Under the pieces are notes generated by a model. That model was not told the DNA's origin. It did no database searches and saw only the letters and a program-made list of their open reading frames with translations. A DNA stretch of 64,000 nucleotides, from positions 47,866,001 to 47,930,000 of the forward strand of contig CM059432.1 of the NCBI GenBank assembly GCA_030390025.1. Direction: 5' to 3'. Positions 341 through 63,632 of this stretch are shown in pieces (position 1 is the stretch's first letter; each line of letters opens with the position of its first letter). Source of the stretch: Squalus acanthias (taxonomy: Eukaryota). The translations under genes were made by a program, and so were the position numbers.

Positions 341-349
341 TAAGTGGAA

Positions 350-794
350 TGTTAGCATAGTGGTTATGTTACTGGACTAGTAATCCATGAGGCCTGGACT
401 AATGATCTGGAAACGTGAGTTCAAATCCCACCATGGCAGCTGGGCAATTAATTAAATAAATCTGGAATAAAAAGCTAGTAACAGTAATGGTGATCATGAA
501 ACTATTGGATTGTCGTAAAAAAAATCTGGTTCACTAATGTCCTTCAGGGAAGGAAATCTGCTGTCCTCACCTGGTCTGGCCTATATGTGACTCCAGACCC
601 ACAGCAATGTGGTTGACTCTTAACTACCCTCTGAAATGGCCTAGCAAGCCACTCAGTTGTATCAAAGTGCTAGGAAAACACCACATGGACTGCAGCGGTT
701 CAAGATGGCGGCTCACCACCACCTTCTGAAGGGCAATTAGGGATGGGCAATAAATGCTGGCCTTGCCAGCGACATCCACATCCCATGAATGAAT
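350..794 (+). mobile_element. tRNA-headed SINE; internally deleted form of the LINE at 3883-7005
   Basis: A-box TAGCATAGTGG, B-box GAGTTCAAATCC. Body matches the reverse complement of ~6715-7005; tail (GGGCAATTAGGGATGGGCAATAAATGCTGG) matches the LINE 3' end. Confidence 0.85.
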
Positions 795-1319
795 TTTTAA
801 AAATGGGAGCAGTGTTTTTACAGTAAGTATATGGGAGAATTTGCAGTTTAGAATTAGAAAACTTCATAATGTAATGTGTCAGAGATTCAAATCAAGTTTG
901 AATTATGCTACAAAACATGTTAATATTTCCCTTTATAGACTCACTTACAGTCATGAGGCACAGATCAATGTTCATGCGAGTTCATTCTGAATATATTTCC
1001 CCCCGTCAAAGGGAAAGCGTCGAGGTGAGGGCAAGGTGGGGAACAACGAGCCTTCAAGGGAAAGGGTTAACGTTTTTAAAATGCCATTCAAATGTGGTAT
1101 TTCTTTCAGAAGTACGGGCTCTCGTTTTACTGCCAACTTGCAAAATGATTGAAAATGTGTTGTAATTTTACTGATAAAACAATGGAAATCGTTGCTCAGC
1201 AAAACAAAAAAAAACTACTGGGGAAACACTAAAGTTATGACGTTGGGATAAACCTGTCGTTCCCCTCAAAACTAAGTTCGGAATGAATTCAGAATTGCTT
1301 GCCCACTGTGGCCAGTTAC

Positions 1320-2489: not shown

Positions 2490-3875
2490 ATCCTTAGTGA
2501 ATTTCTGCGTTACCAAATAGTTGATGAGCTGGAGCTAGTGGAATCACTCTGTGAATAACCAGCATCACATATAAGCTGCTACTCACTGATTGGCGGGATG
2601 TAACAAGTGGTGTTCCCCAGGGATTTGTATTGAGGCCTTAACATTTCACCATATATATGTTAATGACTTTCATGAAGGAATAGAGAGTTGAATACATTAA
2701 GTAGGAGGCACAGTAAGTTGTGCGGATGGGAAGAGAAAGTTATAAAGGGACATAGACTAAGTGAGTGGGCAAACTATGGCAGATGGAGTTCAATGTGAGG
2801 AAGTGTGAGGTCATCTACTTTGTATCTAAGAGAGTCAAATTGTTTCTTTTCTAAATAGTGAGACAAGGAGCTGTGGAGGAGCAAAGGGAGTGAGGGCCTG
2901 GAGTTTCTGCTCAATTGTGCTACTTTTTCAGCGCAATTGCCTCGATATCATCATAACTGGTGCAAAAGATCGCAGAATTTTACGCGCAAATTGTGTTCAG
3001 CGCAACTCAAGTTTCCACGATCTTTTGCGCTAGTTTTAAAAACATTGCGCTAGAAGCAGGCCCCTCCCACAAAACTGCCAACGTCCCCCAGAGTGAATTA
3101 ATCACCATTGCAAGTTTCTGCTAATTGCGCTTGTTTGCAGGCCTTTGAGGAGGCTCCAAAAATGAAGCTGGATCGTTTGGGTGTAAGGACACTAATAGGT
3201 ACGTTTTGAAAGCTTTTGAATGAATTAAAAAAAATACTAAGGAACTGACTACTGTACCCCAATCTAACTGGAAAATAGTTTTGTATATTTTTTTAAAGTC
3301 ATTTTCAGTAATTTAAAATCGGGTTACTCACAGGTGGTGGGTGGATTGACACTGATTTAAATGCTTATTTTTTGTGATAAACTCATTTTCAGCTGTAATA
3401 ATAAAAATTTACCAAGTTAATACTCTTAAATATATCAAGGAATATTTTTTAAAGCATTTTTTTAAATTACGTTTTAAAACACTGCCCGATTCCGCTGGTT
3501 CATGGCAGATTTTGCATTTGGGGATATGCAAATGAGTTTGAGCAGAAACTCAGTGGCAAAAAAAGTTTTCAAGATGAGCGTAATTTTGGGTGCAATTTTC
3601 ACCAGAATCGCTGATTGTGCCCAAAGCGGAAACTGTGTCTATGTACAAAAATTACTAAAAGCTAGTGCACATGTACAAAAATTAATCAAACAGGCTAATG
3701 GCCTTTATCTCAAGTGGACTGGAATTCAAAAGTGAGGAAATGATGCATCAGTTGTACAGAGCCTTGGATAGACCCCATCTGGAGTACTGTGTTCAGTTTT
3801 GGGCACAGAACCTCAGGAAGGATATATTGGCCTTGAAGGGGTACAGCCCAGATTCACTAGAATGATACCAGGACT
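2490..3875 (+). mobile_element. Degenerate CR1 RT fragment split by a DNA-transposon insertion
   Basis: SGVPQG, EWAKLWQMEFNV and RPHLEYCVQFW-like coding remnants on both sides of 2895-3641. Confidence 0.8.
2895..3641. mobile_element. Non-autonomous Harbinger-like element (~745 bp)
   Basis: Interrupts the CR1. Weak TIR (GAGTTTCTGC / GCGGAAACTG), GC-rich arms with repeated GCGCAA/TGCGCTA motifs, AT-rich core. Confidence 0.6.
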
Positions 3876-3882
3876 TTTTAAA

Positions 3883-6800
3883 AATTCGTTCCTGTGTTGT
3901 GAACGTCGCTGGCAATGCCAGCATTTATTGCCCATCCCTAATTGCCCTTGAGAAGGCGGTGGTGAGCCGCTGCCTTGAACCACTGCAGTCTGAGAGGTGA
4001 AGGTACTCCCACAGTACTGTTAGGCTGGGAGTTCCAGTATTTTGACCCAGGGATGATGAAGGAACGGCGATATATTTCCAAGTCAGGATGGTGTGTAACT
4101 TGGAAGGGAACTTGGAGGTGGTGGTGTTCCATGCGCCTGCTGCCCTTGTCCTTCTAGGTGGTAGAGGTCGCAGGTTTGGGAGGTGCGGTCGAAGAAGCCT
4201 TGGCAAATTGCTGCAGTGCATCTTGTAGATGGTACACACTGCAGCCATGGTGCACTGGTGGTGGAGAGAGTGAATGTTTGAGGTGGTGGATGGGGTGCCA
4301 ATCAAGCGGGCTGCTTTGTCCTGGATGGTGTCGAGCTTCTTGAGTGTTGTTGGAGCTGCACTCATCCAGGCAAGTGGTTGGTATTCCATCTCACTCCTGA
4401 CTTGTGCCTTGTAGATGGTGAAAAGGCTTTGGGAGTCAGGAGGTGAGACACTCACCGTAGAATACTCAGCCTCTGACCTGCTCTTGGAGCCACAGTATTT
4501 ATGTGGCTTGTCCAGTTAAGTTTCTGGTCAATGGTGAACCCCAGAATGTTGATGGTGGGGGATTTGGCGAAGGTAATGCTGTTGAATGTCAAGGGGTGAT
4601 GGTTAGACTCTCTCTTGTAGGAGATAGTCATTGCCTGGCACATATATTACTTGCCACTTATCAGCCCAAGCCTGAATGTTGTCCAGGTCTTGCTGCATGC
4701 GGGCATGGATGACTTTATTATCTGGGGAGTTGCGAATGGAACTGAACACTGTGCAATCATCAGTGAACATCCCCACTTCTGAATTTATGATGGAGGGAAG
4801 GTCATTGATGAAGCAGCTGAAGATGGTTGGGCCTAGGACACTGCCCTGAGGAACTCCTGCAGCAATGTCAAGGGGCTGAGATGATAGGCCTCCAACAACC
4901 ACAACCATCTTCCATTGTGCTAGGTATGACTCCAACCAGCAGAGATTTTTCCCTCTGATTCCCACTGACTTCAATTTTACTAGGGCTCCTTGATGCCACA
5001 CTCAGTCAAATGCTGCCTTGATGTCAAGGGCTGTCACTCTCACCTCACCTCTGGAATTCAGCTCTTTTGCCCATGATTGGACCATGGCTGTAATGAGGTC
5101 TGGAGCCGAGTGGTCCTGTTGGATCCCAATCTGAGCATCGGTGAGCAGGATATTGGGGAGTAAGTGCCACTTGATAGCACTGTCAATGATACCTTCCATC
5201 ACTTTGCTGATAATTGAGAGTGGACTGTTGGGGCGGTAATTGGCTGGATTGGATTTGTCCTGCTTTTTGTGGGCAGGACATACCTAGGCAGTTTTTCACA
5301 TTGTCAGGTAGATGCCATTGTTGTAGCTGTACTGGAACATCTTGGCTGGAGGTGTAGCTAGTTCTGGAGCACAAGTCTTTAGCTCGACAGCCGGGATGTT
5401 GCCGGGGCCCATAGCCTTTGCTGTATCCAGTGAGGTCAGCCATTTCTTGATATCACGTGGAGTGAATCGAATTGGCTATAGACTGGCTTCTGCGATGGTG
5501 GGGACCTCAGGAGGAGGCCGAGATGGATCATCCACTCGGCACTTCTGGCTGAAGATGGTTGCAAACGCTTCAGCCTTGTCTTTTGCATTCGCGTGCTGGG
5601 CTCCACCATCATTGAGGATGGGGATGAACATGGAGTCTCCTCCTCCCTTTAGTTGTCCACCACTATTCACAACTGGATATGGCATGACTGCAGAGCTTTG
5701 ATTTGATCCATTGGTTGTGGGATCACTTACCTCTGTCTATAACATGCATGTAGTCCTGTGTTGCAGCTTCCCCAGATTGGCACCTCATGTTTATGTACGC
5801 CTGGTGCTGAATCTTCTACACTCCTCATTGAACCAGGGTTGGTCCCCTGGCTTGATGGTCATGGTAGAGTGAAGGATAGACTGGACCATGAGGTTACAGA
5901 TTGTGGTGGAATACAATTCTGCTGCTGCTGATGTCCCACAACGCCTCATGGATGCCCATTTTTGAGCTGCTAGATCTGTTCTGAATCTATCCCATTTAGC
6001 ACGGTAGTAGTGCCACACAACATGATGGAGGGTGTCAAGACGGGACTTCGCCTCCACAAGGGACTGTGCAATGGTCAGTCCTACCAATACTTTCATGGAC
6101 AGATGCATCTGCGACAGGAATATTGGTGAGTCAAGTAGGTTTTTCCCCTCATGTTGGTTCTCTCACCACCTGCCACAGGCCCTGTCTGGCAGCTATGTCC
6201 TTCAGGACTCAGCCAGTAGTGGTGCTACTGAGTCACTCTTGGTAATGGACAATGAAGTCCCCCACCCAGAGTACATTCTGTGCCCTTGCTACCCTCGATG
6301 CTTTTTCCAAGTAGTGATCAACATGGAGGAGTACTGATTCATCATCTGAGGGAGGGTAGGTGGTAATCAGCAGGAAATTTCCTTGCCCATATGCTTGACC
6401 TGAAGCCATGAGACTTCATGGGGTCCAGAGCCAATGTTGAGTACACTCCCTTCCCAACTGTACTGCCATTTCTGCATCGGTGGGACAAGACATAACATAA
6501 CATGGGGTCATGAAGGAGCCTGGGACATTGGCTGAAAGGTATGATTCTGTGAGTGTGACTATGTTAGGCATTCCCAATTTTGGCACAAGTCCCCAGATGT
6601 TAGTGAGGAGGACTTTGCAGGGTTGACTGGGCTAGGGGTGCTTTTTTCATGTCCAAAGCCATTGCCTAGGTCAATGCCAGGTGGTCCGTCGGTTTTATTC
6701 TTATTATTGCTTTTCATAGCGGCTAGGCCTTTAAGAGTGAACCACGTTGCTGTGGGTCTGGAGTCACATATTGGCCAGAGCAAGTAAGGATGGTAGATTT

Positions 6801-7005
6801 CCTTCCCTAAAGGAGAACCAGATGGGTTTTTACAACAATCCGGTAGTTTCATGGTCACTAGCTACTAGTTTTTTTATCCCAAATTTAATTAACTGAATTG
6901 AAATTCCCCAGCTGCTGTGGTGGGATTTGAACTCATGTCTCCAGATTATTAGTCCAGGCTTCTAGATTACTAGTGCCACTAATATAACCACTATGCTACC
7001 ATACC
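3883..7005 (-). mobile_element. Near full-length degenerate CR1/L2-group LINE (APE + RT) with a tRNA-like 5' head and no recognisable ORF1
   Basis: Frameshifted ORF2 pieces: NIWGLVPK (APE start, ~6600), PWFNEEC, ALDIKAAFD, GVPQGSVLGP, MFTDD. 3' tail at ~3885-3960; SINE-like head at ~6715-7005. Confidence 0.9.
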
Positions 7006-7686
7006 CTTGTTAAATTACAGATCAGCCATGATGGAGGTCTGATGAAGTCTTTCTTTCTTTCATCCATCTAGTTGGGCTGTTGCTGATTTAAAATGAGTAG
7101 TAGGAGTTGGGAGCAACAGCTGACAGCAATAAAAACAACAAATTCTTGAAATACACAGCAGGTATGTTAGACTATCTTTTTTTACAGATCCTAACATATT
7201 TGTTGGAGACACTTCTATCAATTTTGATGAAGGGTATATACCCAAATATTAACCTATACAAAGAAAGGTCAAACCTGAATTTATATAGGAATGGGAGGAG
7301 GCCATTCAGCCCATCAAACCAGTTCCATCATTCAATGAGATCATGGCTGATCTGTAACTCAACCCCATTTACCTGCCTTTGCTTCCCAGAAGCCACTATT
7401 TGAAACAGTTAAGGCAGTTTTTTTTTTTTTTACAACATCAAAACAAAGGCAAACCTTTTTCTGAAGTAACTTTGAAAACCAAAACAATGCTTAATATATA
7501 CAAGGGGAAACCTGAACTATACAATACAGCAATACAATGGCAGGAACCAACTTAAATTGTGATTTATCACATCTCAGCAGCACTGAAAGGGAGATCCAGG
7601 TGTGGCATTGAAAGGGAGAGCGAAGAGCAGGCCTGAGGGAAGGGAGCTGGAGTGGTGCTGATCTTCATCTGTGAGTGCGGACACAC

Positions 7687-8441
7687 GGCCCGTATTTTCC
7701 AATCCCTACAGGTGTGTACGAGCTGTGTACACACCCGTAGGGACCTCGCAAATGCCGGTTTCAGGCATGCGAAGCGCATGCGCTGAAAATCGGCATTTCC
7801 AATCTGTCAAGAATGCTCTTGACAGATCGGACGCCTGCCTTAGAGAAGGGCCTCCGCGGGTGGAGAGTTCCACTTTTTGCAGAACCTCCGCCCGCTGAAA
7901 TCCCTTAAAAATCTTACGCCTGGTAAAAGCAGGCATAAGGCCTACTTTTACCAGCATAAGAGTTTAAGAAAGTAAAAAAAAAAATTTTTCACTCATTTAT
8001 AATTTAAAAATACTTTTAAAAAAGGTAAGTTTATTTTTAGCCCCGTAAAAAACTTTAATTATTTTTTTCAAAAAATAATTTAAAAAAAAATATTTAATTT
8101 AATGTAATTTTAAGTCATTTTAAAAAGGTGATTTAAAAAAAAAATTATTTAATGTTTTAGTGTCTTTTTTCAGTGATCTCCATTCATACTTTTGACAGGT
8201 CTATCTGTCAAAAGTATGAAGGGAGATTCCCTTCTCCCATTGGCTCCCCCTGGCCCACATGATCCCAGGGACACTTGCGAACCGCATGCACCCGTGGGAT
8301 ACCTCGGCCTTGTGCATTTCGTTGTGGAGAGGCCCAGGATCGGAAATGGCCGGACCTCAGGAGCCCTCAGGTAAGGGCGTAGATTTTTTCCCGATAGGAG
8401 GCATCCGCACACAGGAAGCCTCCTATCGGAAATTATGGGCT
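7687..8441 (+). mobile_element. Hairpin-rich non-autonomous Harbinger-type element, family X copy 1 (755 bp)
   Basis: TIRs GGCCCGTATTTTCC / GGAAATTATGGGCT; close reverse-complement match to 49435-50174. Confidence 0.9.
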
Positions 8442-8689: not shown

Positions 8690-8985
8690 ATGTGGATCAG
8701 TTGGTAGCACTCTCACTTCTGAGTCAGAAGGTTGTGGGTTCAAGTCCAACTCCAGAGACTTAAGCACAAAAATCTCCAGTGCAGTACTGAGGCAGTGTTG
8801 CACTGTCAAAGGTGCCGTCTTTCAGATGAGACGTTAAACAGTGGGATCTTGCTGTGCACAAATTGGCTGCCGCATTTCCTACATTACCACAGTGACTACA
8901 CTTCAAAAGTACTTGGCAGTAAAGCGCTGTGGGACATCCTGAGGTTGTGAAAGGTGCCATATAAATGCAAGTCTTTCATTCTTTC
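8690..8985 (+). mobile_element. DeuSINE-like tRNA SINE with L2-type tail (internally deleted)
   Basis: Head and tail match the full copy at 47880-48322. Confidence 0.85.
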
Positions 8986-11699: not shown

Positions 11700-11880
11700 A
11701 AACTGATTATCTGGTCATTATCACATTGCCGTTTGTGGGAGCTTGCTGTGCACAAATTGGCTGCCATGTTTCCTACATTACAGCAGCGACGACACTTCAA
11801 AAGTACTTTATTGGCTGTAAAGCGTTTTGGGACGTCCTGAGGTCGTGAAAGGTGCTATATAAATGCAAATCTTTCTTTTC
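11700..11880 (+). mobile_element. DeuSINE-like 3' fragment
   Basis: Matches the 3' half of 47880-48322. Confidence 0.8.
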
Positions 11881-12199
11881 TTTTATGAATTTAGCTTTAT
11901 CTCTTCAAGGCACTCCTTATTTTCCAATTGCCCATTTTTTAACACACTCTTTATTCGTTCAAATGTCTGCTTGATTCCTTTTGCTCCTGTAGCTTATGAC
12001 AAGGCACCTTGGTGTCACACTTTAGAATCCAAGTTGTCTCAGACCTGCACATACTTTTCTTCACTTGAGGTTGTAGAATTGTGCAGTTTGAATTCAAAAT
12101 CTGAATTGATCTAAATTATTTTTGATATTGCTTTACCATTTTAAAATGCTGTGTTGCACAGATAGTGCTATCAGAAAGAAGGCTACCAATATGTACCAT

Positions 12200-12940
12200 G
12201 GGCCGGATATTCCGATCCCTACGGGTGGGTACGCGCTGTGTACCCACCCGTAGGGACATCGGAAATGCCGGTTTCAGGCATGCACAGTGCATGCGCTGGA
12301 AACCGGCATTTCCAATCTGTCAAGAAAGCACTTGACAAATCCTCTGGCTGCCCGGGAGCAGGGCCTCTGCGGGCGGATAGTTCCGCTTTTTGGAGACCCT
12401 CCGCCTGCAGAAAACCCTTACAATTCTTGCGCCTGGTAAAAGCAGGCATAAGGCCTGCTTTTACCAGGATAAGAGTTGAAAAAAAGTTTATCTGATTTAT
12501 CATTTAAAAATACTTTAAAAGGTAAGTTTATTTTTAGCCCCGTAAAAAACTTTAATTCTTTTTTTCAAAAATTAAAATTTTTGTTTAAAATAGTTAATTT
12601 ATTGTAATTTCAAGTCATTTTAAAAATGTGATTTAAAAAAAAAAATTATTTAAAGTTTTACTATGTTTTGGGGTGATCTCCATTCATATATTTGACAGGT
12701 CTTCCTGTCAAATGTATGAAGGGAGATTCCCTTCTTTGATTGGGTCCCCATGGCCCACGTGATCCCAGGGACGCTGCGAACTATCTGCACCTCTGGGATA
12801 CGTGGGCCCTGCGCACCTACAGTTCGGAGAGGCCCAGCATCGGAATTGTGCGCGTCCCGGGAGCCCTCAGGTAAGGGCGCGGATTTTTCCAGATCGCAGC
12901 CCTCCGCCCGCGGGAGGCCTGCGATCGGAATATCTGGGCC
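12200..12940 (+). mobile_element. Family X non-autonomous Harbinger-type element, copy 2 (741 bp)
   Basis: 18-bp TIR GGGCCGGATATTCCGATC / GATCGGAATATCTGGGCC; CAT TSD at 12197-12199 and 12941-12943. Confidence 0.92.
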
Positions 12941-14109
12941 CATATCTACAACTTACATTGTTAGAAAAATTAACTTGATTTTAGGAGAAATTGAATGTGT
13001 ACTGCAAAAGCAATAGAGTTAATGCAGTGGTATATTTTAGCCACTAATGGGCGTGTTTCTAATACTAGCGCCCATAGAGGTTTGCATTAAAAGAAACAGA
13101 AAACTGAGAAACCATTGAATGCAGTATTTGCTGTGATTTAGTGTTATTCTAAATTTCCCGTTTATAGAAGCAGAAGATATTAACCGACTGCTCACTAATG
13201 CCAATTAAGGACTCAATAGACACTACTAACCCTTTTCCTGCTGGCTGCAATATTTACAGCCATTATAATAATATGACTGTATATAAAAGGTAGGTGGGAC
13301 TAGAGTTTGTATCTCACTGTCTCTGTGAGCTCCTGGAAATTGGGAAATTGTTTTGTTTGCTTAGGCGGTTGAAGAGGAATTTCTCGGATTCTTTTCCTGA
13401 ATTGGCATGAGGTGTTTTTATCTGGTTTTTTTTACCTCTCTCGGGAGGTTACATGGCTATGGGAGGAAACACTGCGAGTCACAATATTTTGTTGCACCAT
13501 GACTGTTTGGGACAGACTCGTTAGACCAGAAGCTCTTTCTTCATCCGTCTTTTCGTATGTATGTCTGTTCCTTCAAAGCTGAGCTAGAGTGGGCTTTCTG
13601 CAGCATACTTAAAGGCGTTACTGCATTTTTTCAACACTTAATTGTGGCAGGAAGCAGGAGAGGAGAACAGGAATGAAGGCTGCATGGGCAGCTCATTAAT
13701 ATCTGTATGAATCACCTCTGATGACAAGTCTACTGGCCAGGACAGGCTATCTGTCACAAAGAAGGTATCTCTCAACCACAGCACTTTTCAGCAGACAACC
13801 GGCTGAACCTGTGATGGGCAATGCCCACCTGTTAGCAGCTGAGATTGGTAACCTTTTCCAGCCCCGCTCCTCTGGAGTCTGAAGAGCAGCTCACGTAATA
13901 TATTGTAGACAGACTTATTTTCATGATAAATGTCTCTTTTTACACAAATTGTAGTAGTCCTGTGAAATGAATAAATCTATCAGTACACTTTAATTTTAAT
14001 GTGTTTGGAGTGCTGGCACTCTGCCTCTCACTGCCCACCTGACAGGGGAGGTTTTTGCTGGAGCAGGGGTTTTAACCTCTCTAAATTTGATTAGTTTATC
14101 AATTACTTC

Positions 14110-16405: not shown

Positions 16406-17168
16406 GGGCCAGAAATTCGGTTTTCCGGCTTCCTGCAGGTGCAAGCATCGCGCGTGTACTTACCTACCGCGCCTGCCGTTGTGTTTTGGGCCCACGAGAA
16501 CTTCGGGTCCTGGGCCTCCTGCAGCTGCCGGCGCGCAGTGCTTGTGTGTACCAGGGGCGCAGTTAGTTTGAAGCGTCCCCTGGGATCACGTGGGCCATGG
16601 AGAGCCAATCCTAGCAGGGCATTTTCATTCATAGAGTTGACAAGAAGACCTGTCAAATCTATGAATTGAAATCGGCCCCAAAACCACACTTAAACTTCAA
16701 ATAATTTTTTTTTAAAAATCACATTTTTAAAATAACTATAAGTTAATTAAATTAACTACTTTAAACAAAAATTTAAATTTTTGAAAAATTAATTATACTT
16801 TTTAACTGTGCTAAAAATAAACTTACCATTCTTTAAAGTATCTAAAAAAGATAAACCTGTTGAAAAATGTTTTAAATTGTAATTAATTAACCACTTACCT
16901 TGTTAAAAACGGGTCTTGCGCCTCCTTTTTAAAAGCGCAGCTTCTTCAATACTTACCTTCCCGGAGAAACCTGAAAAAAAAACGAAGTTTGCTGCGTGCG
17001 CGCAGCCTCTCCTGCGCACGTGGTTCACCTCTGAACCCCTCCCTTCACGAGACCGGAAGTTCCGGTTTCCCGCACATGCGCAGTGCATGCAGGAAACCGG
17101 CACTTCAAGTGGCCTTACGGGTGAGTACACAGCGCGTACTCACCCGACAAGCGCCGAATTTCTGGGCC
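16406..17168 (-). mobile_element. Family X element, copy 3 (763 bp)
   Basis: TIR GGGCCAGAAATTCGG / CCGAATTTCTGGGCC; flanks ATT/AAT; same hairpin series in reverse order. Confidence 0.9.
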
Positions 17169-18754
17169 AATATGCTTAGCTGATTCACTGAACAGTGATA
17201 GTGTACCACCCGATACAGCACACGTCCACCGTGAACAGATAAGATGACTAATGTTACCACTGAGCATCTTCCAGGGGCTAGGGGCTGTCATAGGAATTAT
17301 GCCAAATCCTTTTATGACTAACGAATGGATTAAAATGGATGTGGATTTGTGTATTAGCACGCATAATGTGCCGGATTAAATTTAATGCATATTAGCTACA
17401 ACTTTGGAACAAATATAGTAAAACAGGTCAAAGATCAATAATCATCAAATTCATTGCCTGGTAATCTCTATTAAGGTCAAAACATAAGCAATAGCTATCT
17501 ATTCCTTCTGAACCCTGCACACAAATGTCATGACAGTAATTCTATCACTTACACAACACAGACAGGTGCCAGAGTTCCTTCCTTGATCAAACCAATGCTG
17601 AGTCCTACCACCTGTTGTTCCTAGTCTGGGCCTACCCGAGTCTTTCAGAACGCATCCTGTAATGTACACAATCTTACACATGCCTTTGGTATTTGGCTGC
17701 TCTCAGTTGAATTCATTTTTAAATCATAGGAACCTAGGACTGGGTGTAGGCCATTCAGCCCCTGGAAAATATGCTAGAATTGGATTTTTTTGGTGAAAAG
17801 GATGCTTGGCCAGGTCTCTGGTTGAGAGAGAAAATGATTTTGGCTGCTTTTTATAATGTTCTTACCAGAAATACATTTGTTTCTCAGATAGTAACGACAC
17901 TGAAACAGATTGATTGTTGGTGATTGTTGGAGACTCCCTGGCTCTTCAGAATGAAAAAGAAAGCAATAACTCTTAAAAGGGCATTCAAGGAAAATTTGCA
18001 ATGGTTATTCTCAGAAGGTTGTTATCAAGTTTTCCCACACAATGTGACAAAGTAATTTGCCTCCCAAAGAGATAATTTGCATCACAAAACATAACCGTTG
18101 CTTGTGCGTGATATTTTGATAAATATAGTGTGGCTCTTCTGAGGTTTTTTTCCCCCGCTCCTCAGAATGGCAACAATTCTCCTTTAAAAAGAATGTTTCA
18201 TTAGGAGCTCATGGTTGGGATTATGGAAATAGTGCTTGTAAAACATTGTGACATTCATTTTGCTTCTAATTCCACAGATCTATAAATAAGCCTTTCAAGA
18301 TCCAGAAATGACCACCTTAGTAAACTTAGCTGTCCAATCTGTACTTAATTTCTTGCAGTTTCCGATTCAACAGACATTGATTAACAGTCTTAGCCATTAT
18401 TTAACTAACTAAATAATTATTAAGCCAATTGAGAGGCATGAAATAGGTATTACTGCAGACAGTCCTAACTAATTAGCATTTATATTCACTGCCCTTCAAA
18501 TAATTTAAAATTGTAAAGATTAATACCCTGGTTTTTAAAAGCAGAAAATATCCATGGTGAACATGAGCAAGGAGAAGGAATGGTTGACTGGGCGTAGGAG
18601 CAATTGAAGAGATGGACTAGCACAAGGGTAATTACAGAAGGCACACATCCTGAAAGTGATGAAAGGGATACTTTCAGGAGCAGATGTCTGGAGTCCAGCA
18701 AGTAAATTACTGAGACATAACCTATTGCTTTTAAATCTATCTTGTTTATCTTAC

Positions 18755-19048
18755 CCCATCTGCCTTCTCAGGTGGACATAAAAGATCCCATGGCACTATT
18801 CGAAGAAGAGCAGGAGAGTTCTCCCCAGTGTCCTGGCCAATATTTATCCCTCAACCAACACCACCAAAACAGTTAGCTGGTCATTTATCTCATTGCTGTT
18901 TGTGGGACCTTGCTGTGTGCAAATTGGCAGCCGCGTTCCCTACAATAACACAGTGACTACACTTCAAAAGTACTTCATTGGCTGTGAAGTGCTTTGGGAC
19001 GTTCTGAGGTCATGAAAGGCACTTTATAAATGTAAGTCTGTCTTTCTT
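18755..19048 (+). mobile_element. DeuSINE-like 3' two-thirds
   Basis: AAAGATCCCATGGCACTATT...GTGTCCTGGCCAA core plus L2-type tail. Confidence 0.85.
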
Positions 19049-20686: not shown

Positions 20687-21313
20687 GCAGAGGCAGCGGA
20701 CCTGAGCGGGAGCGAGAGCGGAGGCTGAACAAATAAAGAGCGCGGCAGAGCAAGGCCCGAGAGCAGAGGTAGCGGACCTGAGCGGGACCTGTGAAAGAAA
20801 AAAATATCAAAGTGGGACATCACAGGAAAGCAGCGAAAGAACAACAAAAAACAAGGAGTGACGTCACAGGAAAGCAGGGAAGTGATTGGTTGGTCAGTAT
20901 TTCTCTCTTTTTCTTGGGCATTGGTTTAAATTAAGAGCCGGGATTAAAAACTAAGGGGGAAAAATTAGGTCGCGCCCCGTTTGGGGCGCAAATATCGTCT
21001 GGACGCAAATATTAGCGCCTGGCGCTAATTATCGCCACTGACTGGAAACTTCACTTTTACCGCCCCGGGAGGTGAGTGGAGCGCTAAATCAGGCGCTGCA
21101 CACCTGTCTTAAGGCGCAAAGGCCGAGCCGTGAGGCGCTAACTCAGCGCGCGAGCGCAGCGCAGCTGCTGCCAGTTAGCGAGGGAACACAGACACACTGG
21201 CGCCGGCCAGTTCTTAAAGCGGGGAGGGCCAACTTGCTCCCCAGCCACACCCTGCTCATTGCAGCCTTGAATCTCGGCCTGGAGAGACCTGTGAATCCAT
21301 TTTGCTGCCAAGG

Positions 21314-23133
21314 ATGGAGAGGGTGAGAGAACGAGCTCATCGCTTCACCGAGCGGGCCTTGGATGCTCTGGTTGGCGCGGTGGAGCGCAGAAGATGTATA
21401 CTCTTCCCTGAGAGTGGCAGGAGGCCTTTGCCACGCGAGTACAGAAGAGTGTGGAGGGAGGTGGCTCAGAGCGTCTCCTCCAGGAGCATGGTGCCCAGGA
21501 CCCATGTTCAATGCCGCAAAAAGTTCAACGACCTCACTCGGGTCGTCAGGGTGAGTGGCTTTTTCTCAATACCTCTCCATCCCTCCATCTCAACCTCACT
21601 CTATGGCCAGAGGGTCTTAAAACCACAATGCACAACACTCATCCAACACCTATGGCCCTTTCATGAAACACACACACACATTCCACACTTTGCATACAGT
21701 AAGGGCTATTCACCTCTGGGAGGCACATCAGGCAAGACCATGGCTGCATACAGTAAGGGCTATTCACCTATGGGAGGCACATCAGGCAAGACCATGGCTG
21801 TATATTTACTCAGATGCTGTCCTTTTTCTTGCAGGCCAAGCTGGCGCATAATCGGAGACAGCAGCAACGGACAGGTGGAGGGCGGCCTCAGCTGCAACCC
21901 CTCAGCGATCTTGAGGAGCGCGTCCACAGGATTGTGGCAAGCCGGGTGATCGGTCCCGTCACCACTGGAGACGCCGACCCCGTTCTGGACAGCAATGGTA
22001 AGGTCATCACCTTTTTGTCCTCTGTCCTTCCACTTGTCCCTCACAACACCAGCCTTTGACACTTTCAATCCAACTTGCTAACTCGCTGCACTTATTCCTC
22101 CCTTACTGCCACCCTGTCCTCACGCTAAAGCCACTCTTGTACCTCCCTGCTTTCAGATGGTGATTCACCAGCTGAGGAGACGGGCCCTGAAGCTGCCACT
22201 GGGAGTGAAGCTGCAGCCGAGGAGGAAGAGGAAGCCGGAGCATCAGTGCCACCCTCTCCCGAGGAAGCCCATGCCCACACTGGGAACACGCCTTCCCTGG
22301 AGGGGAGCAGGGGAGAAGGGTCTGATGAGGGTGAAGCTCCAGGACCCAGCAGGCTGCAGCAACGCCATGGGGGTAGGGAAGAACGGGGGCCTTCTCCCCA
22401 GAGGGAGAGTATGCCAGAGACTCATACTGCAATGGACGCAGAGGAGGAGCGGCTGATCGCAGAAATGAACACCCAGGCGGTGGGCATGCACACTGAGCTC
22501 ATGGGTGCAGTGGGAAGGGTGCCCGAATGCATTGAGTCACTGGCAAGGAGTGTGGAGCACTTCGCTGTAGCACAGGCGGATGCCACACTAACGCTTAGTG
22601 CTGCAATTCAGTCACTGGCTGCCGTGATCCCATCTCTGACTGCTCTCATGCAGACTCAGATTGAGGCCACGCGAGCACAGACTGCTGCCAACCTCGATGG
22701 TTTGTTCACATGTCCCCGGGGCTCTCACCGCGCCGCAGCAGGCCAGCAATCTGTTCTCCAGCAGATTGCTCCGGATGCTGAAGTGCTGCCCCGTGGGAGT
22801 GCCAGTGTGTTGGGCGAGCAGGGAGTTGCTGTCCTCTCTCACGATGACAGCATTCCTGCTGCCAACACTGTCACTTCTCCACTGCACTTGCCACCGCCTG
22901 TAGGACAGACTGCTGCCGCCCATGCAGAGTTGGTGCAGTCTGCAGCCGGGCCCTCCAGGCTCAGAACTGGGCGAGGCCGTCCTTCAGGGGCATCTGCACT
23001 GTCAGGGTCTGACGATCAGCAGCCTTCCACCAGCCTTGCTGCAGCCACTGAGGTCCCATTACGGAGGAGCAGTAGGGTTAGAAGGGGGGAAGTGCGCAAG
23101 GGAAGGAGATCACCCTCGAAGGGCAAAAAGTAG
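21314..23133 (+). CDS. Harbinger Myb/SANT-like DNA-binding protein, 3 exons (21314-21550, 21835-21997, 22157-23133), 458 aa
   Basis: RFTERALDAL...WREVAQSV...QCRKKFNDL trihelix motif and RTGGG motif. Canonical GT-AG introns (phase 0 and 1) join into one 1377-nt ORF ending in a basic NLS-like tail. Confidence 0.9.
21691..21800 (+). repeat. 54-bp tandem duplication in Myb intron 1
   Basis: TGCATACAGTAAGGGCTATTCACC...GACCATGGC occurs twice with one mismatch. Confidence 0.95.
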
Positions 23134-23445: not shown

Positions 23446-24606
23446 CTAGAAGCGGCTTGCTATTAGCTGTTGACGGACGGCCCTTGCAGTTTCACCATTG
23501 TGGGCCGCCCTCCCGCCTTGGTGCTGCTGATGATCATCCTCCTCGTCCTCTTCCTCCTCTTCCTCCTCCTCCTCTGGTGGTGCTCCAAGGCCTGGTGGCA
23601 TTGGCTGGGTCCTGACGATTGCCATGTTATGCAACATGCAGCACACAACTACGAAGTTGGATACTCGTTCAGGCGAGTACTGCAGGGCTCCTCCAGAATG
23701 GTCGAGACAGCGGAACCGTTGCTTCAGCACGCCGATTGTGCGCTCAATGATGTTCCTGGTAGCTTGATGGCTCTCATTGTACCGCAGCTCAGCAGGGGTG
23801 TTGGGCGTACGGAGCGGTGTCATCAGCCAGGTGCTCAATGGATACCCCTTGTCCCCGAGAAGCCAACCAACTGGCTGATGCGGTGCCTCGAAAAGTTCTG
23901 CCACAGTAGTCTGGCGCAGGATAAAAGCATCGTGGCAGCTGCCAGGATAGTGGGCATTGACAGCGAGTATCAGCTGTCTGTGGTCACAGACCAACTGAAC
24001 ATTCAAGGAATGGAACCCCTTTCTGTTCCGGAATTCCTCGACATTCTCATGTGGAGCACGCAAAGCCACATGCGTGCAGTCAATGGCGCCCTGCACCATG
24101 GGGAAGCCCGCTATCCTCGCAAAGCCCAGAGCGCAGTCACGCTGCTTGTCTGGGGTCATGGGGAAAGAGATGAACTCTCGTCTCCTTTTAAAGAGGGCAT
24201 TTGTGACCTGCTGGATGCAGCAATGCACCGCGAACTGGGAGATATTGGCGAGGTCCCCAGCAGCAGCTTGAAATGAGCCAGTAGCATAGAAGTTGAGAGC
24301 CACTGTGACCTTCACTGCCACCGACAGAGACGTCCTGGACCTCAGTTGAGGCTGCAGATCTGGCTGCAGCAGGTGGCAGAGCTCAGTGACCACCTCCTTG
24401 CTGAATCGCAGCCTTCGCAAACACAGCTCCTCAGACATATGAATGTAGGAGAGCTGTTCACGATATACCCTGGGAGGGTAAGCTCTCCTGTACATACGCC
24501 TGTTGGCCCTCCTCCGTCTGGCCATCATTGCCACTCTCTCTCTGCGTCTCTGTGTCCTCCGATTCAGCTGGAGCAGGACGACGCCCCCAATCAGTGCAGC
24601 CCCCAT
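23446..24606 (-). CDS. Harbinger (HARBI1-like) DDE transposase, 386 aa, intronless
   Basis: GAIDCTHV, NRKGFHSLNVQ, LGDKGY and IERTIGVLKQRF motifs with the catalytic D/D/E intact; acidic tail. First ATG at 24606 (the ORF track begins at an upstream TTG). Confidence 0.96.
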   Translation of the reverse strand: MGAALIGGVVLLQLNRRTQRRRERVAMMARRRRANRRMYRRAYPPRVYREQLSYIHMSEELCLRRLRFSKEVVTELCHLLQPDLQPQLRSRTSLSVAVKVTVALNFYATGSFQAAAGDLANISQFAVHCCIQQVTNALFKRRREFISFPMTPDKQRDCALGFARIAGFPMVQGAIDCTHVALRAPHENVEEFRNRKGFHSLNVQLVCDHRQLILAVNAHYPGSCHDAFILRQTTVAELFEAPHQPVGWLLGDKGYPLSTWLMTPLRTPNTPAELRYNESHQATRNIIERTIGVLKQRFRCLDHSGGALQYSPERVSNFVVVCCMLHNMAIVRTQPMPPGLGAPPEEEEEEEEEDEEDDHQQHQGGRAAHNGETARAVRQQLIASRF

Positions 24607-25163
24607 AGTCTCTTTGCAAGCAAAGTAATGAAGGACAGCAACCAAAGTAGCAGCGAAGTTAGGATCAGTAGGCAAAACTATCTCACAAAGCTTAGACTCA
24701 ATGCAGAAGTCTCTCTTTCTCTCTCTCCTAATCTCTCTCTCTCTCTCAGAACGAGTGGTGCAAAAATGTCAACCACAGAAAAAGACAGGAAGAGGCCCCC
24801 TTTAAATAGCGCCCCCCCCCAGCCCCACAGCGATTGATAGCGTTCCAGTCTTCCGGTCGTTGGATGTGCCAGGCGGTAAGGCAGGGGGCGCCACTCAATT
24901 TCCGCTCCGGGGCGCCACAAGGGCGTTGCACCATGGAATGACGTCACAATCTGCGCGCGCAGGTGGTCGCAGCGGTAAAGTTTAGCGCCGCCGCACAATG
25001 TCTAGTTAAGTTCCGGAGCGGCGCAAACATCGCTGCGCCCGGGCGTTAGCGGCTTTGCGCCCCATTAGCGCCCTCTTAAGGCGCTAACGGGAGGCGCAAC
25101 CAACTGAATTTTTACCCCTAAGTGTTCAAAACTTAAACACTTAATTAATTAAATACATTAGCA

Positions 25164-26119
25164 ATGGCAGGGCAGGCGATGTGTTACTGCTGCAACATGT
25201 GGGAGCTGGTGGACACCATTGAGGTCCACGGCGACCACGTTTGCAGTAAGTGTTGGCTGCTTGAGGAACTTCGGCTCCGTGTTGATGAGCTGGAGTCTGA
25301 GCTTCAAACACTGTGACACATCAGGGAGGGGGAGAGTTACCGGGATGCTGTGTTCCAGGAGGCAGTCACACCCCTTAGATTAATTAATTCAAATTTGGTC
25401 CGTCATCAGGGACAGGTGGGTGTGACTATGAGCGAGGCAGGTATGGGGACCCAGGAGGTAGTGGTGGAGGAGCCTCAGCCTTGCTCTTGCCCAACAGTTA
25501 CGAGGTTCTTACTCTCTGTGTGGGTGAGAGCAGGGACTGCAGTGAGGATGAGCAAACTGACCACAGCACCGTGGTACAGGGAGCCATTCAAGTGGGGGGA
25601 GCAAAATGAAATGTGGTAGTGGTAGGGGACAGTATAGTTAGGGGGATAGACACTGTTCTCTGCAGCCAAGAGCATGAGTCCCGAAGGCTGTGTTGCCTGC
25701 CCGGTGCCAGGGTAGAGGACATCTTCTCTGGGCTGGAGAGGAACATAGAGTGGGAGGGGAAAGATCTTGTTGTCGTGGTCCATGTAGGTACCAACGACAT
25801 AGGTAGGACAAAGAAAGAGGTTCTGCTGAAGGAGTATGAGCACCTAGGGGCTAAATTAAAAAGCAGAACCACATAGGTAATAATCTCTGGATTACTACCT
25901 GAGCCACGTGCAAATTGGCATAGGGTAAATAAGATCAGAGAGATGAACGAGTGGCTCAAAGATTGGTGTGGGAGAAATGGGTTTCGATTCCTGGGGCACT
26001 GGCACCAGTACTGAGATAAGAGGGAGCTGTTCCATTGGGACGGGCTACATTTGAACCAGGCTGGGGCCAGTGTCCTGGTGAATCGAATAACTAGGGCTGT
26101 AGATAGGGCTTTAAACTAA
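25164..26119 (+). pseudogene. CR1 ORF1 (Cys-rich N-terminus, coiled coil, SGNH esterase), disrupted
   Basis: CYCCNMW..CSKC, VGDSIVRG, HVGTND and DGLHLN motifs; internal stops and frameshifts. Confidence 0.88.
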
Positions 26120-26122
26120 ATA

Positions 26123-29100
26123 GTGGGGGGGGAGGGATACGCTGAGCGGAAATTAAAAAAGTCAAAGAAAAATGAGAAGGCAAAAGGGCAGTGTAGCGAT
26201 AGGGGTAATGATAACCAGAGTGTGACAGGAAGGGACAGAACGTATACACATAAGAGTGCATCAGAAAGAAGGGTCAGAGTAGGGAAAAATGGTAAAAAGA
26301 CAAAATTAAAAGCTCTATATCTGAATGCATGCAGCATTCATAACAAGATAGATGAGTTGACAGCACAAATAGAAGAGTTGACAGCACAAATAGAAATAAA
26401 TGGGTATGATCTGATAGCCATTACAGAGACGTGGCTGCAAGGTGACCAAGGCTGGGAACTGAATATTCAGGGGTATTTGCCATTTCGTAAGGATAGGCAG
26501 AAAGGAAAAGGAGGTGGTGTAGCTCTGTTAATAAGGGATGAGATCAGTGCAGTAATGAGAAATTATATTGGCTTAGAAGATCAAGACGTAGAATCAGTTT
26601 GGGTGGAGATAAGAAATAATAAAGGTAAGAAGTCACTGATGGGAGTGGTCTACAGGCCCCCAAACAGTAGCCACACTGTAGGACAGAGTATAAATCAAGA
26701 AATAATAGAGGCTTGTAAGAAAGGTTTGGCTATAATCATGGGAGATTTTAATCTTCATATTGATTGGACAAAGCAAATTGGCAAAGGTAGACTTGAGGAA
26801 GAGTTCTTAGAGTGTATATGGGATGGTTTCTTGGAACAATACATTGTGGAGCCAACCAGGGAGAAGACTATTTTAGATCTGGTAATGTGTAACGAGACTG
26901 GATTAATTAATGATCTCGAAGTGAAGGATCCTCTTGGGAAGAGTGATCATAGCATGGTAGAATTTCAAATTCAGTTTGAGGGTGAGAAAGCTAGGCTCAA
27001 ACTAGTGTCCTGAACTTATACAAAGGTAATTACAAAGGTATGAAGGCAGACTTGGTTAAAGTGGACTGGGAAAATATATTACAGGGTAAGACTGTAGAAA
27101 AGCAGTGGCAAACATTTAAGGAGATATTTCATAACTCTCAGCAAAGATATATTCCAGTGAGAAAGAAAGACTCTAAGAGAAGGATGAACCAGCCGTGGCT
27201 AACTAAGGAAGTAAAGGATGGTATCAAATTGAAAACAAAAGCATACAATGTTGCGAAGAATAGTGGAAGGCCAGAGGATTGGGAAATTTTTAAAAACCAG
27301 CAAAGGACGACTAAAAAAATGATAAAGAGAGAGAAGATAGCTTATGAGAGTAAGCTAGCAAGAAATATAAAAACAGACAGTAAGAGCTTCTACAGGTATA
27401 TAAAAAGGAAGAGAGTAGCTAAAGTAAATGTTGGTCCCCTAGAGGATGAGTCTGGGGAATTAATAATGGGACACAGGGAAATGGCAGAGATTTTGAACAA
27501 ATATTTTGTATCGGTCTTCACGGTAGAAGACACTAAAAGCATCCCAATAATGGATAATCAAGGGGCTATTGGGGTGGGGGGGGGGGGAAACTTAAAACAC
27601 TCACTATCACTAGCGAGAAAGTACTAGGCAAACTAATGGGACTAAAGGTGGACAAGTCCCCTGGACCCGATAGCCTGCATCCTAGAGTCTTAAAAGAGGT
27701 GGCTGCAGAGATAGTGATGCATTGGTTGTAATCTACCAAAATTCCCTGGAGAGGTCTCAGCAGACTGGAAAACCACAAATGTAATGCCCCTATTTAAGAA
27801 AGGAGGGAGACAGAAAGCAGGCAACTATGCAGACAAATTTGCTGGAGTTCTTTGAGGATGTAATGAGCAGGATGGATAAAGGGGAACCAGTAGATGTCGT
27901 GTATTTGGATTTCCAGAAGGCATTCGATAAGGTGCCACATAAAAGGTTACTACACAAGATAAGAGCTCACGGGGTTGGGGGTAATATATTAGCATGGACA
28001 GAGGATTGGCTAACTAACAGAAAACAGAGAGTCGGGATAAATGGGTCATTTTCAGATTGGCAAACTGTAACTAGTAGGGTGCTGCAGGAATCAGTGCTGG
28101 GCCTCAACTATTTACAATCTATATTAATGACTTGGATGAAGGGACCAAATGTAATGTAGTCAAATTTGCTGATGATACAAAGATAGGTGGAAAAGCAAAT
28201 TGTGCGGAGGACGCAAATAATCTCCAAAGGGATATAGATAGGCTAAGTGAGTGGGCAAAAATCTGGCAGATGGAGTTTAATGTGGGAAAATGCAAGGTTA
28301 TCCACTTTGGTAGAAAAAATAAAAAAACAAATTATTATTTAAATGGGGAGAGATTACAAAATGCTGCGGTACAGAGGGATCTGGGGGTCCTTGTACATGA
28401 ATCACAAAAAGTTAGCATGCAGGTACAGCAAGTAATTAGGAAGGCAAATGGAGTGTTGGCCTTTATTGCAAAGGGAATCGAGTATAAAAGTAGGGAAGTC
28501 CTGTTACAACTGTACAGGGCGTTGGTGAGACCACACCTGGAGTACTGCGTACAGTTTTGGTCTCCTTATTTAAGGAAGGATATACTTGCATTGGAGGCAG
28601 TTCAGAGAAGGTTCACGAGGTTGATTCCGGAGATGAAGGGGTTGTCTTATGAAGAAAGGTTGAGCAAGTTGGGCTTATACTCATTGGAGTTTAGAAGCCT
28701 GAAAGGGGATCTTATTGAAACATATAGGGCCGAAAATTGATCCCGGGACGCGAGAGTACGCACTGCGTACTCTCGCGTATTCCCACTCCAATTGCCGGTT
28801 TTCTGCATGCCCTGCGCATGCGCTGAAAACCGGCAATTGCTCTTCTGAAAAGGGGGCGGGTCCTGGGTGCATCGCGTGCGCGCTACAGGCTGCGCGCACG
28901 CTGTGCACTTCATGCTTTGGACGCGCAGGTAAGTAGGGAAGATTTTGGAAATGTAAAAAGGAGGAGTAAGACCCGCTTTTAAGAAGGTAAGTAGTGAATT
29001 AAGTATTTTTTTGAATTTTTTTTTACAGGTATATCTTTTTTAGAGACTTTAAAGACAGGTAAGTTTATTTTTATAACTTTTTAAAAGATTTTAAATTTTT

Positions 29101-29710
29101 TCAAAAGTTTAATTTTTTATTTAAAATGGTTAATTTAATTAACTATACTTATTTTATTAATGTGATGGTTTTTTTTTTAAATTTAATTGAGGTTTAGCTG
29201 TTATTTTGGGGGGGTGTAAGATTCATAGATTTCACAGCAGGTCTGTGAAACTTATGAATGGAAGATGGTGTGCTGCCATTGGCTCTAACTGAGTCACGTG
29301 ATCCCACAGCTCGCACGAATTCACTACGCCGCTGGGATACGCAAGCCCAGCACAGCTGATGTCTGGAACATCAAGTTCGTGCGAGCTGGATCTGAAAAAG
29401 CACAAGCGAGGTGAGACATCGCGGGGAAGGCTTACCCCCGCGGGAACAGAGCGAGATCAATTTCTGGGCCATAAGATTCTGAAGGGGCTTGACAGGGTAG
29501 ATGCAGAGAGGATGTTTCCCCTCGTGGGGGAATCTAGAACTAGGGGGCATCATTTCAGAATAAGGGGGCACCCATTTAAATCGGAAATGAGGAGAAATTT
29601 CTTCTCTCAGAGGGTTGTGAATCTTTGGAATTCTCTTCCCCAGAGAGCTGTGGAAGGCTGGGTCATTGAATATATTTAAGGTGGAGATAGACAGATTTTT
29701 GAATGGTAAG
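26123..29710 (+). pseudogene. CR1 ORF2 (APE endonuclease + RT), disrupted
   Basis: AITETW, GDFN, SDH, YLDFQKAFD and KFADD motifs. Frameshifts, an in-frame 21-bp duplication (26354-26395), an apparent deletion at ~27828, and an insertion at 28727. Confidence 0.92.
28727..29470 (+). mobile_element. Family X element, copy 4 (744 bp)
   Basis: 16-bp TIR GGGCCGAAAATTGATC / GATCAATTTCTGGGCC; ATA TSD. Removing it restores the CR1 reading IETYKILKG. Confidence 0.95.
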
Positions 29711-36760: not shown

Positions 36761-37819
36761 AAAGATATGAATGTTTTAATTTATTTTCTGTTTGCATCTC
36801 ATGGTTGTTATTTGTAAATGTTTTATCTAATTGTCACCTGGTAAAGGGGGCGATTTGGTGAATTCTATGTATTGCAGTTCCACAAGAAATGGATGAAAAG
36901 AACTCTCATAATGCATCTCATACATATAGAATTTGTCAACAGGGGCTGGTAATCTTTGCCTCAGTTGATGGTTTATTGTCTGCATGGTTATCATGTAATG
37001 TGAGTTGTCAGTGCAATCTTGGTGTTATAGGTCCACAGAAGAAGGATTAAAACTGCAACTCTCATAATCTATCTTTCACACACGCTAAGAGAGAAGGGCG
37101 AAACTTCTGGCAAGCATTTTCAATGTATAATGGCTAAGTTTTTCCAGAATCATATTATTCTTAATGTATTTATTATAGTTTAAATTAAATTTTTATACAT
37201 AAGTACTGGGCCGTATGAGGAAACAACATGGTTACTGAAAGAATGATGAAAATTGAACAATTTAAATGATTTTGTAGCTATGGAAAAAAAAGTACTTTTA
37301 TTGATTGGTTGGCTTTTTGGTGGTTGTTAGGTAGCGTTTCGTACCTAGTGAATGGAACTGGTATTTGGTTGGTTCAATGCAGTGTTTGAGGCAATCAGCA
37401 TGGCTATCTTAACAACATAGTTATTTGAGCCAATCATAAATTTTTGCCTTTACCTTTGTATGACTTTACCTTTGATATGTTGATGCCTTTGTCAGCTGTG
37501 GGCACGTACTAAATGTAAGACTTCTAACAGGGAGACAGACATTATGTGTAATTAGCACACTGAAGGTTAAAAGCTTCTATGGATGCTTATTAAACATTAG
37601 TGTGGTGGTAGATTATTTTGTTTGTCAAAATGGAAAATGTTCTGATTAAACAGATATTGTACAGCAGTGATGAAACACAAATAAAGAGGCGCTCAGTACC
37701 AGGCAGTGCTAAAATCTGAAATCTGCTCTTTAATTACATTTAATACAAAGCAGAGTGAAAATCACAGACACGCAAAAGAACCAAATCCTGTATTTGTGCC
37801 AATAAACAGCTGTAACAAA

Positions 37820-58224: not shown

Positions 58225-59010
58225 ACATGTCTGTGCACATTTGCACCACACAAGTGCCAGGCAATGACTATCTCCAACAAGAGAGAATCTAACGACAATC
58301 CCTTGACATTCAATTGCATTACCATTATCAAATGCCGAATCCCCCACCATCAACATCCTGGGGGCCACCATTGACCAGAAATTGAACTGGACCAGCCACA
58401 AAAATACTGTGGCTACAAGACCAGGTCAGAGGCTGGGTATTCTGTGGCGAGTGACTCACCTCTGGCTCCCCAAAGCCTTTCAACCACCTACAAGGCACAA
58501 GTCAGGAGTGTGATGGAATACTCTCCACTTGCCTGGATGAGTTCAGCTCCAACAACACTCAAGAAGCTCAACACCTTCCAGGACAAAGTAGCCCGCTTGA
58601 TTGGCACCCCATCCACCACCTTAAACATTCACTCCCTCCACCACCAGCGTACCATGGCTGCAGTGTGTACCAAGATGCACTGCAGCAACTCGCCAAGGCT
58701 TCTTCGGCAGCACCTCCCAAACCCACAATCCCTACCATCTAAAAGGACATGGGCAGCAGACGCATAGGAGCACCACCTCCTCCAAGTTCCCCTCCAAGTC
58801 ACACACCATCCTGACTTGGAAGTATATCGCCGTTCCTTCATCGTCGCTGGGTCAAAATCCTGGAACTCCCTCCCTAACAGCACTGTGGGAGTACCTTCAC
58901 CACATGGACTGCAATGATTCAAGAAGGTGGCTCACCACCACCTTCTCAAGGGCAATTAGGGATGGGCAATAAATGTCAGTGACGTCCACATCCCATAAAT
59001 GAATAAAAAA
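58225..59010 (+). mobile_element. 3' fragment of the LINE family of 3883-7005
   Basis: ORF 58444-58767 and the family tail. Confidence 0.9.
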
Positions 59011-63294: not shown

Positions 63295-63632
63295 TGCTTA
63301 GTGTCGTGGTTATGTTACTGGACTAATAATCTAATGAATGTGAATTCAAATCCCACCATGGGAATTTGAATAGAGTTTAAAATAAAAGCTGGAAATAAAA
63401 AGCTGGTATCAGTAAAAGTAAAAACCCATCTGGTTCACTGATGTCTTTAAGGGAAGGAAACCTGCCATCCTTACCTGGTCTGGCTTATATGTGACTAAAG
63501 TCCCACACCAACATGGTTGAGTCTGAAGTGGTTAGGAAGCCACTCAGTTGTATCAAATCGCCAGAAAGACTAACTTGCAACGGTTCAAGATGATGGCCCC
63601 CCAACACCTTCTCAGGGTAACTGTTGCCAGCA
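63295..63632 (+). mobile_element. Copy of the SINE at 350-794
   Basis: GTGGTTATGTTACTGGACTAATAATC head, same body, and a similar jump to the LINE tail. Confidence 0.8.

Follow-up and report, generated by a model that had tools for sequence, protein, structure and literature searches.

The working split between retroelement classes treats LINEs as Pol II-transcribed and protein-coding, and SINEs as Pol III-transcribed and non-coding. Pol III terminates at T-runs, and its RNAs are uncapped and rarely translated; for CR1-group LINEs, insertion by target-primed reverse transcription is established. The described elements closest to the one reported here are the Zenon LINEs, which Stuart et al. 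2026 documented in elasmobranchs, coelacanth and hagfish, all without ORF1 and all poly-A-tailed in the parts of the publication available to us (PMC13343379). In the same parts, the consensus sequences were extended automatically, those of elasmobranchs are more than 84% identical to each other, the legible entries of the table score from 59 to 2,313 copies per elasmobranch family, and hardly any copy has an intact ORF2 (0/2,313, 1/1,419 and 3/612). ORF-less bipartite forms, made of the two ends of a LINE, were listed by Kojima 2018 for RTE, Ingi, Vingi and R2 only and not for the CR1 group, within the sections available (PMC5786205).

We examined a window of 64 kb (64,000 nucleotides) from Squalus acanthias. 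Positions 7006 to 3875, on the minus strand, were found to contain a full-length but decayed 3.1-kb LINE that starts with a tRNA-Thr-like head. Its parts run from the tRNA-like head through a 5' UTR of about 290 nt to a single endonuclease-RT frame, without ORF1. The features of the element and of its relatives in the window are as follows.

6909..7006, minus strand: tRNA-derived head (Thr-AGT-like), 5' end of the LINE; anticodon-arm region duplicated internally over 21 nt
6988..6998, minus strand: Pol III type-2 A box, from element position +9
6923..6934, minus strand: Pol III type-2 B box
6712..6908, minus strand: 5' UTR body, common to the LINE and the short derivative (comparison with published rows by eye)
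6620..6711, minus strand: linker between body and endonuclease, LINE-only, multi-copy
3938..6619, minus strand: single decayed ORF2 with AP endonuclease, reverse transcriptase and C-terminal region
about 4651..5259, minus strand: RVT_1 domain (E 2.5e-26)
3875..3999, minus strand: 3' tail common to the LINE and the short derivative (sequence comparison)
345..803, plus strand: bipartite short derivative, head and 5' UTR from 345 to about 678, followed by the LINE 3' tail at about 679-803
63300..63620, plus strand: second, more decayed short derivative with the same 5'/3' joint and a head without the duplication
58254..59004, plus strand: 5'-truncated LINE copy, 87% identity
41506..42060, plus strand: 5'-truncated LINE copy, 90% identity
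36418..36759, minus strand: 5'-truncated LINE copy, 90% identity

The initial annotation had placed an A box and a B box at the start of a minus-strand element, and both were present at 6998-6988 and 6934-6923. The element itself was shifted slightly, its 5' end to about 7006, with GGTAGC from 7000, and its 3' end to about 3875 rather than 3883. No target-site duplication was detected, the flanks sharing no word longer than 5 letters, and the copy is old. Numerous stops and frameshifts interrupt ORF2. The endonuclease begins with CKVLLTNIWGLVPK at 6619, which aligned to the N-terminal end of a 971-residue relative that is intact (E 1e-13), and the 387 nt ahead of it are too little for an ORF1, as had been claimed. 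A 100-codon open frame at 6559-6861 was considered as an ORF1 and rejected; it had no Pfam match, and its openness depends on small private deletions of this copy, which lie in the 5' UTR body near 6815, 6731 and 6720. The ORF1-less, single-frame layout contrasts with the canonical CR1 of the window, which has an esterase-like ORF1. That second LINE, at 25400-28730 on the plus strand, is near-full and combines an SGNH-esterase-like ORF1 (motifs read) with an endonuclease-RT; it served as an internal control. The absence of ORF1 had been presented as unusual, a premise that is wrong for Zenon, where it is universal according to the available parts of PMC13343379, so that this part of the finding is ordinary and already known.

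The 3' end of the LINE carries AATAAA (3929-3924), T5 (3884-3880) and A5 (3879-3875). The same three signals close 345-803, so that they are present in each headed copy whose 3' end can be read. Near 41449-41489, a short fragment also has a 3' T-run, while in the three 5'-truncated copies a plain A-run forms the end. Since the T-run was encountered in only three of six 3' ends, it may not be encoded by the family. The poly-A tail is present as A-runs of 8-9 in the three truncated copies and as T5 followed by A5 in the 7006-3875 copy.

Judged by its sequence, the LINE is a Zenon element of the CR1 group. A quick RT tree of 115 rows, built for clade assignment, placed it in a Zenon-type set of 27 rows together with moth, butterfly and beetle elements and apart from canonical vertebrate CR1 (support 98), with bird CR1 located elsewhere. 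The tips of this tree carry no Zenon label, and the name was taken from the match to the published elasmobranch consensus rows, which consists of exact short terms and a comparison by eye within the first 400 nt provided. Pieces of the same RT, at 58-74% identity, were encountered in shark gene models, which points to a shark-like host. For the endonuclease, the exact start motif had no match in the metagenome and viral contigs, and none came from searching proteins by words of the endonuclease piece. A HMMER search gave 10 matches, two of them unrelated repeat proteins. It was noted that a relative from the Zenon-type set, protein P0009, has an N-terminus that ends in a DIHPNPGP motif ahead of the endonuclease, a motif which we take to be 2A-like.

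The head was then assessed for tRNA likeness. Only three pairs of A and B boxes occur in the window (6998/6932, 353/419 and 35263/35308), all of them at the heads of repeats. The two boxes of the LINE are spaced 66 nt apart, and between them the anticodon-arm region is duplicated over 21-22 nt. A related head at 345-440 had been described as tRNA-Thr-like (AGT) with a partial duplicate; the duplication is real, and ARAGORN at 90% of threshold called tRNA-Thr(agt) whether the duplication was left in or taken out. The more decayed head of the LINE itself received a call only at the laxer 80% threshold, with unstable identity, and at that threshold 10 of 200 shuffles also yielded a call. At the default threshold ARAGORN made no tRNA call on the heads, Rfam had no tRNA match for them, no cloverleaf-like fold stood out (z about +1.1), and the folding of head and tail was not above that of shuffles. 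With respect to SINE2 traits, the LINE does have a tRNA-derived head that contains both boxes (called by relaxed ARAGORN only), and at 3.1 kb with endonuclease and RT it is neither short nor non-coding, properties encountered only in the derivative 345-803.

We sought the head in the published rows, for which the supplement of PMC13343379 gave the first 400 letters per consensus, and our comparison is limited to those. Within them, the head opens all seven elasmobranch Zenon consensus rows, from five species including a stingray (by eye). All seven continue with the same body and linker, and the endonuclease start is visible in two. The A box begins at position 6-11, matching the layout of tRNA genes, and the B box is intact in 6/7. 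Two B-box terms occurred six times among the approximately 1,000 consensus 5' ends of the supplement, each time in an elasmobranch Zenon row, and none of the three coelacanth and hagfish Zenon rows had the head within its first 400 nt. For five Zenon families the supplement lists longest insertions equal to consensus length (3,220-3,322 nt). These consensus rows were automatic extensions, and the genomic copy 7006-3875 displays the same order of parts.

Sequencing data were consistent with this picture. The linker was found to be multi-copy in the contigs of four organisms. In three DNA runs, the linker bins (6636-6727) had summed contig depths of 3,854-24,416 compared to 0-50 in the flank bins (7050-7095 and 7188-7250); this depth is a sum and not a copy number, and all four runs consist of contigs. 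One contig matched the 5' flank of this locus together with the head at 99%, and none among the matches listed (32 pieces) bridged the junction of head and linker. In contigs of one sequencing run, an alternative linker variant was observed behind 6633. Whale-shark gene model P0127 carries body-like and then endonuclease-like sequence at another locus and, being a spliced prediction, offers a weak independent hint. The family was present in run X17, which had been considered as a record of transcription; this run consists of contigs whose RNA nature was a guess, and it was set aside as demonstrating no transcription. By its sequence distribution, the tRNA head is a trait of the elasmobranch Zenon family and not a local accident.

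The short element at 345-803 was compared with the LINE, with which it shares 80% identity at the 5' end and 89% at the 3' tail. It equals the first 330 nt and the last 125 nt of the LINE and has nothing of its own. The composition is that of a bipartite non-autonomous derivative, which contains only the 5' and 3' ends of its LINE. The stretch 624-678, missing from the LINE copy at 7006-3875, is present in the first 400 letters of the published Zenon rows (by eye), and the 5'/3' joint is identical in both short copies of the window. The breakpoint that had been proposed at 6731 proved to be an artefact of the private deletions of the LINE copy, and the common sequence reaches to about 6712. 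Loose contig ends do pile up at 6731; they carry the letters of the published rows, as far as these extend, and so reflect the deletion in this copy. Lacking sequence of its own, the short element is best read, from its composition, as an internal-deletion derivative of the LINE and not as the donor of the head. Of the stable union of SINE and LINE that the initial annotation had envisaged, a family-wide union of tRNA head and LINE was supported (7/7 rows as provided, with a multi-copy linker in four organisms), and the SINE does not look like the donor of the head.

Other SINEs of the window were also examined. A separate tRNA-headed family with an L2-type tail occurs at 47876-48324 (plus) and 37817-38263 (minus), with fragments at 8693-8984, 11700-11883 and 18767-19048, and is presumably SacSINE1/Deu-like. 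A third type at 35250-35682 (plus), which we assume to be HE1/V-SINE-like, has A and B boxes of its own; its 5' start is duplicated, and its tail is common to CR1 3' ends. Neither 47876-48324 nor 35250-35682 showed similarity to the head, body or tail of the LINE above that of shuffles. A SacSINE1/Deu label for the LINE body was tried and dropped. The lack of a match to the presumed Deu-type SINE of the window argues against a Deu domain.

The window also contains several repeats of other kinds. A Myb/SANT frame at 21218-21949 (plus) faces a DDE_Tnp_4 transposase frame at 23446-24768 (minus) in a PIF/Harbinger layout, and the transposase frame is open over 440 codons. A repeat family of approximately 750 nt has at least six copies at 71-87% identity (7684-8440, 12191-12943, 49432-50183, 16467-17177, 28718-29470 and 60020-60780). 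A pair of related repeats, GC-rich and about 2 kb long, lies at 45581-47633 and 50374-52829; the two share 66-70% identity and carry several long open frames, one of which was run against Pfam and gave no match.

We then analyzed the distribution of T-runs on the sense strand of the LINE. Runs of three or more T were observed 10 times compared to 26.5 expected (Poisson P 0.0002), while runs of A, C and G were normal at 0.87, 0.92 and 1.34 of expectation. The ratio of observed to expected T-runs was 0.27-0.38 in the Zenon LINE and 0.61-1.67 in 38 control LINE frames, the former being lowest. These controls were the 38 of 80 metagenome loci with a match of at least 2 kb, the other 42 having been dropped. 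The CR1 of the window had a ratio of 1.16 and seven T4+ runs in 2.4 kb. Under protein-preserving nulls over 718 in-frame codons, four runs were observed compared to 11.2 (P 0.0015) and 16.8 (0/2,000) expected, and phenylalanine was encoded by TTT in 2/20 cases compared to 46/118 for the other NNY codons (P 0.011). Neither the protein-preserving deficit nor the TTT shortage was detected in the CR1 control. Runs of four or more T, the count named in the initial annotation, pointed in the same direction (1 compared to 3.4 expected) and were not significant against dinucleotide shuffles (P 0.12). Pooling four non-independent copies gave P 0.024 for these runs, and the depletion was gone under trinucleotide shuffles. 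The sole internal T4 (4424) is T3 in both of the other copies that cover the site.

The TTT avoidance fits selection against Pol III terminators. A like argument from Pol III termination at T-runs appears in the available text of Kojima 2015 (PMC4494074). The controls are almost all non-Zenon elements from other hosts, so the avoidance could be a general Zenon trait. In a scan of relatives, four of 81 loci (80 metagenome and one viral) lay nearer to the Zenon set, by a narrow margin. No metagenome relative matched the head, and none of the 40 scanned gave a tRNA call.

We slightly favor the reading that 7006-3875 is a dead, full-length, single-ORF Zenon LINE of sharks and rays, with a family-wide tRNA-Thr-like head from which it was likely transcribed by Pol III. 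It likewise seems somewhat probable that the RNA made from the internal boxes was copied by the element's own endonuclease-RT through target-primed reverse transcription. From the geometry of the 5' end and the TTT avoidance, we infer that the head may act as a promoter. Template switching in the elasmobranch lineage would have joined a tRNA, or a tRNA-headed RNA, to the 5' UTR of a Zenon that lacked ORF1. TFIIIC would bind the A and B boxes, Pol III would make a 3.3-kb RNA from tRNA +1, and transcription of the full-length RNA would select against internal T-runs. The endonuclease-RT protein would bind the 3' tail and insert copies by target-primed reverse transcription, and an internal deletion would yield the 450-nt SINE, riding on the LINE's enzyme. 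Translation would be the weakest step, since the RNA would be uncapped, with AUGs upstream and none evidently in frame; ORF2 protein could arise by cap-independent or non-AUG initiation, or by Pol II read-through of some copies. In the 7006-3875 copy, no AUG in the ORF2 frame is present within the linker or ahead of the endonuclease. Six of the seven published elasmobranch rows, as provided, conserve an upstream AUG; read by eye, the stingray row has it out of frame, and one gappy dogfish row has it in frame. It was also observed that the ORF2 frame appears to continue upstream through 6620-6711 (minus) in the published rows, as a basic, arginine-rich and AUG-less stretch (by eye, first 400 letters). 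The full scenario for sharks and rays, of an autonomous Pol III-driven 3.3-kb LINE with purged terminators, cap-free translation and a SINE obtained by simple deletion, is offered more tentatively and falls a little short of an even chance.

The head might instead be a family-wide passenger, with Pol II transcribing the LINE either through host read-through or from a promoter that lies in the 5' UTR body, and with only the short derivative making use of the boxes. In its favor, Pol II is the usual polymerase of LINEs, translation would proceed without any special step, the T4 test taken alone falls short of significance and the T-run controls are almost all non-Zenon. Signals for Pol II and Pol III may also conflict, according to the available sections of Kojima 2018 (PMC5786205). 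A passenger leaves unexplained, however, an avoidance of TTT that is specific to strand and base over 2.7 kb of coding sequence, as well as consensus 5' ends with the geometry of tRNA +1 and boxes kept in five species in the rows provided, and we consider it unlikely. Less probable still is a headed 3.3-kb form acting as a long passenger RNA made by Pol III, a giant SINE with ORF2 sequence left in it, its protein supplied in trans from Pol II transcripts of the Zenon family itself or by a headless subfamily. The T-run avoidance would then require no translation of an uncapped RNA, and the missing in-frame AUG and the near absence of intact ORF2 in the published counts would agree. Few intact frames are equally expected of an old, extinct family, and every elasmobranch Zenon consensus provided is headed at more than 84% mutual identity, leaving no other driver on record there.

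That a SINE and a 5'-truncated LINE were juxtaposed once at this locus, or that the automated extension of consensus sequences produced an artefact, appears highly improbable and is refuted at the family level. The automatic extension in the published source, the missing target-site duplication and the pile-up of loose ends at 6731 could suggest it; yet those ends trace to the deletion in this copy, the linker is multi-copy in four organisms, and the part order of a genomic copy agrees with seven independently built consensus sequences, in the portions provided, whose heads are species-specific. The reading that we favor remains that of a Zenon LINE transcribed by Pol III from its own head.

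The family-wide head is a real feature of a known LINE family for which we found no description. Searches of the open literature turned up no published description of a Zenon tRNA head and no paper that joined Zenon, shark, SINE and tRNA. The main text of PMC13343379, as available, has no match for "tRNA" or "polymerase III", and neither head nor T-run avoidance is described there. A description of the head was likewise not encountered in the available text of PMC7245038, PMC11481361, PMC10468316 and PMC5804259, and a whale-shark preprint, in the part provided, names CR1-Zenon once and tRNA never. If the favored reading is true, a LINE that kept a tRNA promoter in sharks and rays, with codons reshaped against T-runs, would break the LINE/SINE split, and it would represent a natural long Pol III RNA that yields protein. 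For the CR1 group, deletion in a LINE that already bore its head would be a route to a SINE that is absent from the cited papers in the sections available.

Among known systems, the elasmobranch Zenon elements (CarCar_, HypSab_, RhiTyp_ and ScyCan_Zenon-1 and SquAca_Zenon-1/2/3; PMC13343379) have a head, body and linker near-identical by eye over the letters provided. In the available parts they resemble 7006-3875 in their length (3.2-3.3 kb), single endonuclease-RT frame, lack of ORF1 and A-run tail, and the SquAca rows are closest by eye, with no difference in kind. The shark SINEs SacSINE1 (Deu) and HE1 (V) are likewise tRNA-headed and have a tail common with a partner LINE (PMC5499810, PMC4824008; available sections), though unlike the Zenon derivative they have only the tail in common with it. 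The mammalian SINEs B2, Dip and Ves, with AATAAA, Pol III terminator and A-tail, resemble the two headed Zenon copies with their series of AATAAA, T-run and A-run, and differ in being short and non-coding, while the Zenon T-run occurs in three of six 3' ends (PMC8466645, part of the text). RTE-1_DAn and elements related to it are autonomous-type LINEs with a tRNA-like sequence that matches many SINE2 elements, and are a possible precedent; they belong to the RTE clade, and the passage available gives neither a position nor a Pol III role (PMC5786205). Bov-B/Bov-A/Bov-tA, SINE2-1_ACar on Vingi-2_ACar and the RTE-derived SINEs, as far as the sources were available, likewise combine the 5' and 3' ends of a LINE with a tRNA head (PMC5786205, PMC4494074). 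In systems of the Bov-tA and SINE2-1_ACar type, within those sources, the head joined a deleted, non-coding form, whereas in Zenon it is the full-length coding LINE that is headed.
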